18,440 nucleotides of DNA from a virus (taxonomy: Duplodnaviria > Heunggongvirae > Uroviricota > Caudoviricetes), in the IMG/VR virus record IMGVR_UViG_2534682158_000018. One strand, 5' to 3'. The position numbers are program-made. Below, piece by piece: positions 3,001 to 6,000 of the stretch. The stretch's first letter is position 1; the number at the start of each line of letters is the position of its first letter.

Positions 3001-6000
3001 CTCGCTTTGGGCTGCTGCAACCTGGCTGTTTTTTGCCGCAGTTTCACTGGCTTTAGCATTCGTTTCGCTGGTCTTCGCTGCCGTCTGGCTGGACTTTGCG
3101 TTGGTTTCGCTCGTCTTTGCGGCTGTCTCGCTATTTTTCGCGTTGGTTTCTGATTTTTTAGCTGCTGTTGCGGAGTTTGCCGATGCAGTCTGCGAGGCCG
3201 CTGCCGCCTGTGCGCTGTTAGCTGCATTCGTTTCTGAGGTTTTCGCCGCGTTCTTCGATGATGCCGCTGCAGTTTCGGATTTCTTTGCCGCCGCTGCGCT
3301 CTGAGAGGCGGCTTCAGCGTTGCGTGCCGCTTCTTCCACCATTTCCTCAAAACGACGCAATGCTTCCGGCATGACATCATCTTCCGTCATGGCACCGAGA
3401 AAATCATTCAGCGTACCTGGTCTGGAACCTTCATAGACGGTAATGGCCCCGGCATGTGAAGGCGGAAAACCTTCAACAAGCAGGATAACGCTGTACTGGC
3501 CATACTCAACATCCATGCTGTAACGCCCGGCTTCATCCGGATTTTCAGAGGCCACCGTGTTCACCAGTACCGTGGTGCTGTTACGCTTTGCCTTCAGTTG
3601 AATAGTGCAGTTCTGTATTGGTTTTCCCGCACCATCTTTCAGCACACCTGAAATCTGTACTGCCATACTCACTCCACAAATAAAAAAGGCGCCATTTCTG
3701 GCGCCCGTATTGGGGTTATAAATATTTCAACGGATACTGATACCGGAAGCAGCTTTTTTGGTCACAATCACCGTACAGTCTGTGATGTTACCTGCGCCCT
3801 GATTGCCTTTCTGGAAAATCTTAAACTCCAGAGTGACGTTACCACCACCACTCGGCATATCAATAACCGCACTGTAACTACCGGGAATGGCTCCTTTAGT
3901 TTCTCTGGATGCGATTAATACGCCATTTTTGCGAACTTCAAAACCATAACCCGTGTATCGCGTACCTCCCGGGTTATTACCGCTCCCCGGATCGTCATAC
4001 GCCACACCGTTAAAAATAATGGGCGGAATAATGATTTGGCGGTCAAAGTTATGATCATCGTAAATGGTGACTGTAACCGTCCCGTTTGGTGTTTCCGTGT
4101 TACCCCACGTACCAGCCTTTTTCGGGAATGATTTGGATACAGTTTTAACGAAGTCACCTCTGACCTGGTTCGCCTCCAGCATGCCCTTAATCATACAGTT
4201 TTCATTTACCGTGACATTATTGAGCGTCCCGGAGTTCGCATTCACGTTACCGCTGATATCAGCATTTCTCGCCGTCAGCCGCCCGTCCGGTGTCAGGGAA
4301 AATACCGGAGGACTGCCACCACTGGTAATGGTGGGGGCCGTCAGGCGCTTCAGGAACACTTCGTTCATGAATATCTGGTTGCCCTGCGCCACAAACATCG
4401 GCGTTTCATTCCCGTTTGCCGGGTCAATAAACGCGATACGGTTAGCGGCAACCAGGAACTGGCTCAGTTTGCCTTCCTCCGTATCCTCCATGCTGAGGCC
4501 AAGCCCCGCGACATAATGTTTGCCGTCTTTGGTCTGCTCAATTTTGACGCCCCACATGGCATTCCATTTATCGTTGGCGTCCTTCCACTCTTTCGAAAAC
4601 TCCTCCAGTCTGCTGGCGTTATCCTCCGTCAGCTCGACTTTTTCCAGCAGCTCCTTGCCGAGATGGGATTCGGTTATCTTGCCTTTGAAAAAATCCAGGT
4701 AACCTTCCGCATCATCGCTCGCCCGACCGACGGCCTCCACGAATGCCGATTTGCCAACGGTGTTCACACTGCGGATATAAAAGTAATAATCATGGCCCGG
4801 TTTGATATTGATACTGGCGGCTATCCAGTACAGCGCCGTACCAAGATAGCGGGCTGTGGTTTCAACCTGCCTGATATCGGTAATCCGCTTTTCCGAGAAC
4901 CAGAACTCAAACTGTACCGTCGGATCATAAATCGCAAGATGCGGCGTGGCGGTTATCTGAAAATAGCCCGGTGTCAGCTCAATCCTCGACGGTGCTGCCG
5001 GTGCGGCAATCCGGAACGATACCGATGCCGGATCGCCCTGCAGTCCCCACGCATTTACCGCCCGGACTGTCAGCGTGTACCGCCCCAGCGCCAGTTGCGT
5101 GAAGCGGTATGTGGTTTCCGTCGTCCGGGCCGTGCTGACCAGCCGCTCACTGCCGTCGTCCGCTGTTACGGTCAGGCGAAGCATAAAGCTCACCCCCTTC
5201 ACCACCTTCGGCGTGTCCCAGCGCGCCAGCACCTGATATTCCCCGCTGTCTGCGGTGACTTCGGCAGTCAGGTGCTGCACCGCTGGCGGCGTGACACCAT
5301 TCACCGTGCCGCTCTGGTCGCCGTCAAAGTGCGCCCCGTTATCCACGATGGCCTCTTTTTCCGGCACATGCTGCACGGCGGTGATGGCATACGTGCCGTC
5401 GTCGTTCTCACGGATACTCACGCAGCGGAACAGTCGCTGGCGCAGCGTCGGCAGCTTCAGCCCCCATACGCTGTATTCAGCAACACCGTCAGGAACACGG
5501 CTCACTTTTACCTTCACGCCGTCGGTGACGGACTGAACCTCCACGCTGACCGGATTGCCACTTCCGTCAACCAGGCTTATCAGCGTGGTACCGGAGGATG
5601 GCAGCGTGATTTCACGGTCGAGCGTCAGCTTCCGGGTCTGGCTGTTCACCGCCAGCACGCGCCCGCCGGTGCTGATACCGGCATAGTCATCATCGCAGAT
5701 TTCAATAACATCACCCGGCACATGGCGAAGCCCTTCAGCACCCACGCTGAAGTCCACGGTCTGCGTTTCCAGCAGTTCTGTTTTAATCAGCCACAGCCCG
5801 GCGCGGTGTGCCTGCCCCCGACTGGTACAGCCAAAGGCATCCATCTTCGTGACGTTACGACCGTAACGGGCAATGGCCTGCGTGTCCTCCACAAGCTCTG
5901 TTGCCGTTTCCCAGCCGTTATCCGGGTCAATCCAGTTCACCTCAACGGCATTATGGCGGTCCTTCAGGGCGCTGAAGCTGTAGCGGAACGGCGCGCCATC

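Follow-up and report, generated by a model that had tools for sequence, protein, structure and literature searches.

Which surface protein does a lambda-like tail recognise when its tip protein, J, follows lambda closely until the receptor-binding end and then parts from it? The question is raised by an 18,440-nucleotide stretch of caudoviral DNA (IMG/VR record IMGVR_UViG_2534682158_000018), the whole of which is called the window below. Gene J, encoding the tip attachment (central tail fibre) protein, lies there on the minus strand. An earlier inspection made without database searches (the sequence-only reading) had proposed that the C-terminus of this J is probably not specific for LamB, the lambda receptor, and targets another outer membrane protein. 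Our comparisons lead to the same view and give it a name. Judged by its sequence, the divergent end is a module of the phage 434 (h434) J family, identical in protein to that of phage Tritos, and the receptor of this allele is probably OmpC rather than LamB (we put the probability at roughly 0.78). This is the correct reading of an ordinary, well-known allele rather than the discovery of a new one. The parts of the gene are given here by window position.

3727..7140, minus strand: gene J; 1137 codons plus a stop codon with the frame intact, from the list of open reading frames (ORFs) and translation.
4312..7140, minus strand: lambda-like J body (residues ~1-943), made up of hub, FNIII and immunoglobulin (Ig) domains, helical shaft and the start of the beta-prism; 46-50 identities per 50 residues and 88-100% identity per 100 nucleotides relative to lambda.
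4192..4311, minus strand: transition zone (residues ~944-983), the distal beta-prism; 77-87% nucleotide identity to both lambda and 434 in 30-nucleotide bins.
3730..4191, minus strand: divergent receptor-binding module of the 434/Tritos type (residues 984-1137, 154 codons), set by sequence identities to lambda, 434 and Tritos.
3733..4140, minus strand: Ig-like C-terminal receptor-binding domain (residues 1001-1136); Pfam PF12421, Ig_GpJ_C, expect value (E) 4e-25, 88.8 bits against a cut-off of 26.2.

The gene is a lambda-type J with the full gpJ domain architecture. All six Pfam domains (FNIII-A_GpJ, Phage-tail_3, Ig_J, Ig_J_second, Phage_Tail_Tip and Ig_GpJ_C, in that order) score above their curated cut-offs, and their order is that of lambda. 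J is the last gene of the tail block H-M-L-K-I-J and is followed by the side tail fibre genes, both among the window ORFs and in the annotation of E. coli M7424, which carries a prophage 100% identical to this DNA and in which the same protein (WP_000515308.1) is annotated as gpJ.

When J was compared with its lambda counterpart (NC_001416; 1132 residues) by BLASTP, identity over the whole length was 88%. This figure splits into 96.6% for residues 1-983 and 35.2% for residues 984-1137. The first of these values upholds the earlier view that J is nearly lambda through most of its length, and the ORF holds both of the peptides quoted in support of it. The DNA tells the same story, with 88-100% identity to lambda per 100 nucleotides up to gene position ~2800, 84% and 73% in the next two bins, and 39-56% from gene position ~2950 (window ~4190) to the stop codon. 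Within the divergent part, the domain that Pfam titles 'Tip attachment protein J, C-terminal receptor binding domain' is 33.6% identical to that of lambda (residues 1001-1137). Thus the divergence noticed earlier is real, although its extent had been put too high: about 180 residues were proposed, against 154 codons (3730..4191) of strong divergence. The C-terminus does keep a length similar to that of lambda (1137 versus 1132 residues for the whole protein), by way of four compensating indels. Over the last 150 residues of lambda J, identity is clearly below 90%, the level above which the sequence-only reading had agreed to be wrong. With 35% identity over residues 984-1137 and indels in all four predicted loops (see below), the domain falls outside the LamB type.

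The relatives of the module are found elsewhere. Over residues 984-1137, identity to the J of phage 434 (OL657226, UMO75286.1) is 92.9% with zero gaps, and identity to the J of lambda h434 imm21 (OM418627, UNA07266.1), a phage that also surfaced as a match when the whole window was searched, is 92.2%, again with no gaps. High identity and equal loop lengths place the module in the 434 type. The J of Tritos (OV696610) has the same 154 residues without a single difference. With window positions 3727-4270 (544 bases) as megablast query against phage records, 151 records were matched. Nucleotide identities were 99.8% for HannyBb (PP925841) and Tritos, ~99% for PhiR11_1 and PhiR63_1, 96% for ev207, and 91-93% for Ayreon, cdtI, mEp460, phage 2851 and many phages converting to Shiga toxin (Stx) types Stx1a, Stx2a and Stx2c. 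C-termini of the HK97/HK022 type were also considered and were rejected: BLASTP of residues 984-1137 gave no significant match in HK97 J or HK022 J (best E 0.25), and their J bodies are 33% identical to the one described here. HK022 stands here for the group of J C-termini, phi80 and N15 among them, that is linked to use of FhuA and to a cor gene.

Where the body gives way to the module, the transition zone (residues 944-983), with 83-87% identity to lambda as well as to 434, differs from 434 J at seven residues, and 4192..4311 or its close surroundings probably hold the recombination junctions. Over the 154 codons of the module, ~22.5 synonymous and ~12.5 non-synonymous differences separate it from 434, giving a synonymous rate (dS) of 0.245, a non-synonymous rate (dN) of 0.036 and a dN/dS ratio of 0.15. 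The corresponding ratio for residues 1-930 of the J body is 0.055. These values indicate that the module is under purifying selection across the family, with a constraint somewhat weaker than that on the J body.

The step from module to receptor depends on what is known of 434. Replacement of lambda J by the tail fibre gene of 434 makes lambda bind OmpC, the receptor of 434, and it is the C-terminal part of J that sets specificity (PMC11101478; PMC3509688). The assignment of OmpC as the 434 receptor goes back to Hantke 1978, as reported by a paper that cites it, and Feiss et al. 2022 (PMC9119081) sequenced the strain that has the h434 allele. A live phage with the module of the window is also available, because Tritos plaqued on E. 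coli K-12 MG1655 (PMC9928086). As its module is identical, the module described here is functional in an infecting phage. The h434 allele itself has been in use since the 1960s-70s and is a classical host-range marker.

Two other possible sources of a receptor assignment were followed and dropped. Phage 21 (phi21) had been suspected as an OmpC user with this allele; its native receptor is LamB, and its J closely resembles that of lambda (94% nucleotide identity). The OmpC-using chimeras of Brodel et al. were considered as carriers of the allele, and sequence words taken from the window did not occur in the supplement of that paper; the C-terminus of chimera 1A2 is different, and that of A8 is ~50% identical. 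A 2026 preprint on receptor prediction covers the GpJ proteins of Drexlerviridae and relatives and contains no lambdoid alleles.

A structural model brings the differences from lambda together in space. The last 200 residues of J, aligned with 22 database homologues, were used for an AlphaFold2 model of the monomer, which had a mean predicted local distance difference test (pLDDT) score of 76.5. The Ig-like part is all beta, with pLDDT mostly 73-97 over the block, and the prism segment ahead of it, which is ordered only in the trimer, is poorly modelled. The four best Foldseek matches in the PDB were 8xck, 9wca, 8xcj and 9wcb (probability 1.00, template modelling score 0.61-0.71), with E 1e-15 to 1e-17 for the two receptor-bound entries, 8xcj and 9wcb. 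The top match is lambda gpJ (E 5e-17), and a sequence search of the PDB finds the same proteins. Two of these entries are of lambda, its central fibre in the closed state (8xck) and gpJ in complex with LamB (8xcj), and two are of A8 gpJ, as a closed fibre (9wca) and in complex with OmpC (9wcb). The all-beta, Ig-like model superposes on the solved gpJ domains and so belongs to the Ig_GpJ_C fold. When the alignment was read together with DSSP assignments of the model, all four length differences relative to lambda fell in loops between strands.

4087..4113, minus strand: predicted loop 1 (residues ~1010-1018, GTWGNTETP); two residues longer than in lambda, beside lambda residue 1012.
3964..4002, minus strand: predicted loop 2 (residues ~1047-1059); six residues longer than in lambda near 1043-1049, matching the indel hotspot at 1048-1049.
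3880..3903, minus strand: predicted loop 3 (residues ~1080-1087, ETKGAIPG); one residue longer at lambda 1078, matching the indel hotspot at 1077-1078.
3787..3813, minus strand: predicted loop 4 (residues ~1110-1118, QKGNQGAGN, including residue 1115); two residues gained and six lost around lambda 1099-1114, where lambda residue 1107 lies.

The hotspots are those of Maddamsetti et al. 2018 (PMC6646904), who found four places of recurrent indels among 1207 natural J homologues, at 1012, 1048-1049, 1077-1078 and 1107; residues 1012 and 1107 are also critical sites at which lambda gains use of OmpF in the laboratory. The four indel positions of the present allele coincide with these four hotspots. 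In lambda, the bottom loops L1-L4 enter the LamB trimer from its extracellular face, and the tail tip opens on binding (PMC11101478). From the published hotspots and the alternating topology of the loops, we infer that loops 1-4 face the receptor in this allele as well. In an AlphaFold3 model made by others, three loops of 434 J touch OmpC, and one of these exceeds in length its counterpart in a different J that uses OmpC (PMC12502783); that extra, longer loop would correspond to loop 2 here. It is because all four loops predicted to face the receptor differ from lambda in both length and sequence, and because the module is of the 434 type, that OmpC seems the most likely receptor and LamB does not.

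The course of adsorption would then be as follows. The intact J of this lambda-like prophage carries, in its last 154 codons, an exchangeable receptor-binding module. Following the lambda model, J would trimerise into the central tail fibre, and the three Ig-like C-terminal domains at the tip would enter the outward-facing opening of a trimeric porin with their bottom loops. This contact would open the tip and so trigger ejection of the DNA.

Several points weigh against the assignment to OmpC. The literature consulted, including papers on the LF82 prophage and on lambdoid Chi, contains no receptor assignment for Tritos, HannyBb, IdasGreatGrand, PhiR11_1, PhiR63_1, ev207 or mEp460. The module differs from that of 434 by 11 substitutions, five of them in or beside predicted receptor-facing loops, and small changes in J can matter: four mutations give lambda the use of OmpF (PMC6646904), one mutation lets phi21 use OmpC, and OmpC-using J alleles differ in the natural OmpC variants that they accept (PMC11338833). 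Moreover, the orientation of the loops is taken from a model of the monomer rather than of the trimer-porin complex. Finally, an insertion sequence (IS) of the IS66 family lies in head gene C, and this copy of J may therefore be idle now.

The last point leads to an alternative to which we give an even chance: J would be a passenger in a defective prophage, with no adsorption role here, and the allele would be kept only as a reserve for recombination with other lambdoid phages. Window positions 1..18056 match, at 100% identity, the late region of an Stx2d-converting lambdoid prophage of E. coli M7424 (NZ_CP063153, a human faecal isolate; positions 12001..30056 of the retrieved stretch), and all window matches end at 18054-18056. 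Beyond this point lies the following.

18058..18440: end of an IS66-family, ISEc23-like element; its terminal sequence starts GTAAGCG, and the junction is at ~18056/18058.

The element interrupts gene C, encoding the S49-family head protease, ~45 codons from the gene start, whereas all 100%-identical prophages, such as that of M7424, are uninterrupted there. Because of this interruption the prophage copy in the window is probably unable to make heads, and hence probably defective for head assembly. This judgement was made from the window alone; the rest of the prophage lies beyond it. On the other side, J has an intact reading frame and is 100% identical to that of the uninterrupted M7424 Stx2d prophage, so that any decay must be very recent. 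Note also that the passenger role concerns the current use of J rather than its binding target and is therefore compatible with OmpC as the receptor of the allele.

A second alternative concerns the target itself. The Tritos-type subvariant may have shifted from the specificity of 434, either to another trimeric porin (OmpF, PhoE, an NmpC/OmpN-like or a YedS-like protein) or to a subset of OmpC variants unlike that used by 434. Of the 11 residues by which residues 984-1137 differ from 434, A1009V, N1019D, V1046I, Q1110H and G1115R (given as here to 434) are the five found within or beside predicted loops 1, 2 and 4. Residue 1115 is glycine in the window and in Tritos, arginine in 434 and tryptophan in lambda h434. 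The ease with which few mutations switch the porin used by lambda and phi21 J, and the acceptance of different OmpC variants by the OmpC-using chimeras A8 and 1A2 (PMC11338833), would also fit such a shift. In contrast, the module shows zero indels and a dN/dS of only 0.15 relative to 434, its predicted loops 2 and 3 have the same sequence as those of wild-type 434, and Tritos plaques on K-12, as does 434. We therefore regard a shifted specificity as unlikely. If true, it would amount to fine tuning of the receptor within a very common family, which would help to decide the E. coli lineages lysogenised by the Stx2d-type prophage family.

In this connection, the two 434-type J proteins are themselves not the same. 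J of the lambda h434 imm21 hybrid (L002, 4087..7500, minus strand) differs from wild-type 434 J (L005, 1006..4419, plus strand) by D1050N, which lies in loop 2, and by R1115W. Both positions are in predicted receptor-facing loops, and these may be host-range changes acquired during laboratory passage. By their pattern of substitution, residues 1115 and 1050 look like sites at which specificity is tuned.

The weakest alternative, that the domain still binds LamB and has diverged by neutral drift or antigenic variation, can point to a fold and overall length like those of the lambda domain and to phi21 as another natural J variant that uses LamB, but it is very improbable and nearly refuted by homology, given 35% identity to the lambda domain, indels in all four loops, a phi21 J that is close to lambda where this allele is not, and a 93%-identical 434 domain that gives use of OmpC and not of LamB.

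The allele with its probable OmpC specificity proves to be widespread. Its family was found at a query coverage of at least 80% in 2091 of 5426 complete E. coli genomes, whereas the C-terminal module of lambda itself reached at least 80% coverage in 96 of the same 5426, and the genomes among the matches listed for the latter belonged to laboratory strains, including several DE3 lysogens. This family is thus far commoner in E. coli than the LamB allele of lambda, which is the rare one, and the rarity of the LamB allele is the useful addition made by our survey. It was already established that the 'specificity region' of J (residues 960-1132) evolves and recombines as an independent module (Maddamsetti 2018, PMC6646904), and among the phages of that study were mEp460, cdtI and Ayreon, whose J modules are of this family. 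The tip of J decides which cells are open to a lambda-like phage. A 434-type tip directed to OmpC predicts that spread is governed by ompC status and by the OmpC variant present rather than by maltose regulation or LamB. J modules that target OmpC are already exploited in engineered delivery vehicles.

The genes past J, in the direction of transcription, are listed here.

3687..3706, minus strand: terminator-like hairpin with a T-run directly past J, found by terminator scan.
1294..3666, minus strand: side tail fibre gene stf (790 residues, ATG at ~3666), with a lambda-Stf-like N-terminus matching Pfam phage_tail_N.
1..1294, minus strand: three small genes past stf, namely an ORF of 93 residues (no Pfam match), a 234-residue Peptidase_S74 protein and a hydrophobic ORF of 95 residues.

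In lambda and in 434, J and the side tail fibre genes are separated by a lom gene of the Ail/PagC/OmpX family. The gap between J and stf in the window (3673..3726) contains no lom and only the hairpin, and Tritos likewise lacks lom at this place. After its lambda-like N-terminus, Stf has a long stretch rich in alanine, serine and threonine with near-exact internal repeats (AAKTSETNAKSSQTAAKTSETNAKASETAAKNSQVAAAQSESAAAGSA occurs twice), and its C-terminal half showed neither likeness to lambda nor a Pfam match. The 234-residue protein, with its Peptidase_S74 (endosialidase-chaperone) domain, may be a second fibre or spike protein that cleaves itself. In Tritos the counterpart of this gene encodes 346 residues and has a PinR recombinase in its vicinity, a hint that the fibre region is variable or invertible.

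In M7424, the genes stxA2d and stxB2 (39096..40336 of the retrieved stretch) lie ~9 kb past the point corresponding to the right end of the window, which itself contains no toxin gene. The same genome has a porin gene annotated 'ompC' (2961..4139 of the retrieved stretch) ~8 kb from the end of the prophage, between drpB/yedR and hchA. Its position on the K-12 map suggests the yedS-type porin locus rather than canonical ompC, and its closeness to the prophage is probably incidental.

Among known systems, the nearest is J of phage 434 and of lambda h434, which has the same 1137 residues, carries the same four indels relative to lambda and likewise ends a tail block in the order I-J. It differs from the J described here by the 11 substitutions in residues 984-1137 and the seven more in residues 944-983, with arginine (434) or tryptophan (h434) rather than glycine at residue 1115; in addition, 434 has lom after J and different side tail fibre genes. 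Tritos (prophage 3 of E. coli LF82) shares both the module, at 100% identity, and the layout of J and stf without lom, although its J body is 98.3% identical and its distal tail fibre gene encodes 346 residues rather than 234. The lambda gpJ-LamB system (8xcj and 8xck; Ge & Wang 2024) resembles the present one in the Ig-like fold, in the predicted context of a trimeric fibre and in the overall mechanism that would follow. It differs in that the domains are 35% identical, all four bottom loops are set apart by indels, and the receptor of lambda is LamB. The A8 gpJ (9wca and 9wcb; Brodel et al. 2024, Eligo) is, like the present case, a natural J C-terminal module and is the closest sequence of solved structure (E 1e-43, ~48-52% identity). 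A8, 1A2 and phi330 J are all natural modules that retarget lambda-type tails to OmpC, but they belong to other allele families: the C-terminus of 1A2, as given in the supplement of the paper, is a clearly different sequence from this module, and the receptor-binding domain of phi330 is 35-40% identical to that of 434. Several divergent J modules (A8, 1A2 and phi330) thus use OmpC, having either gained or retained that ability.

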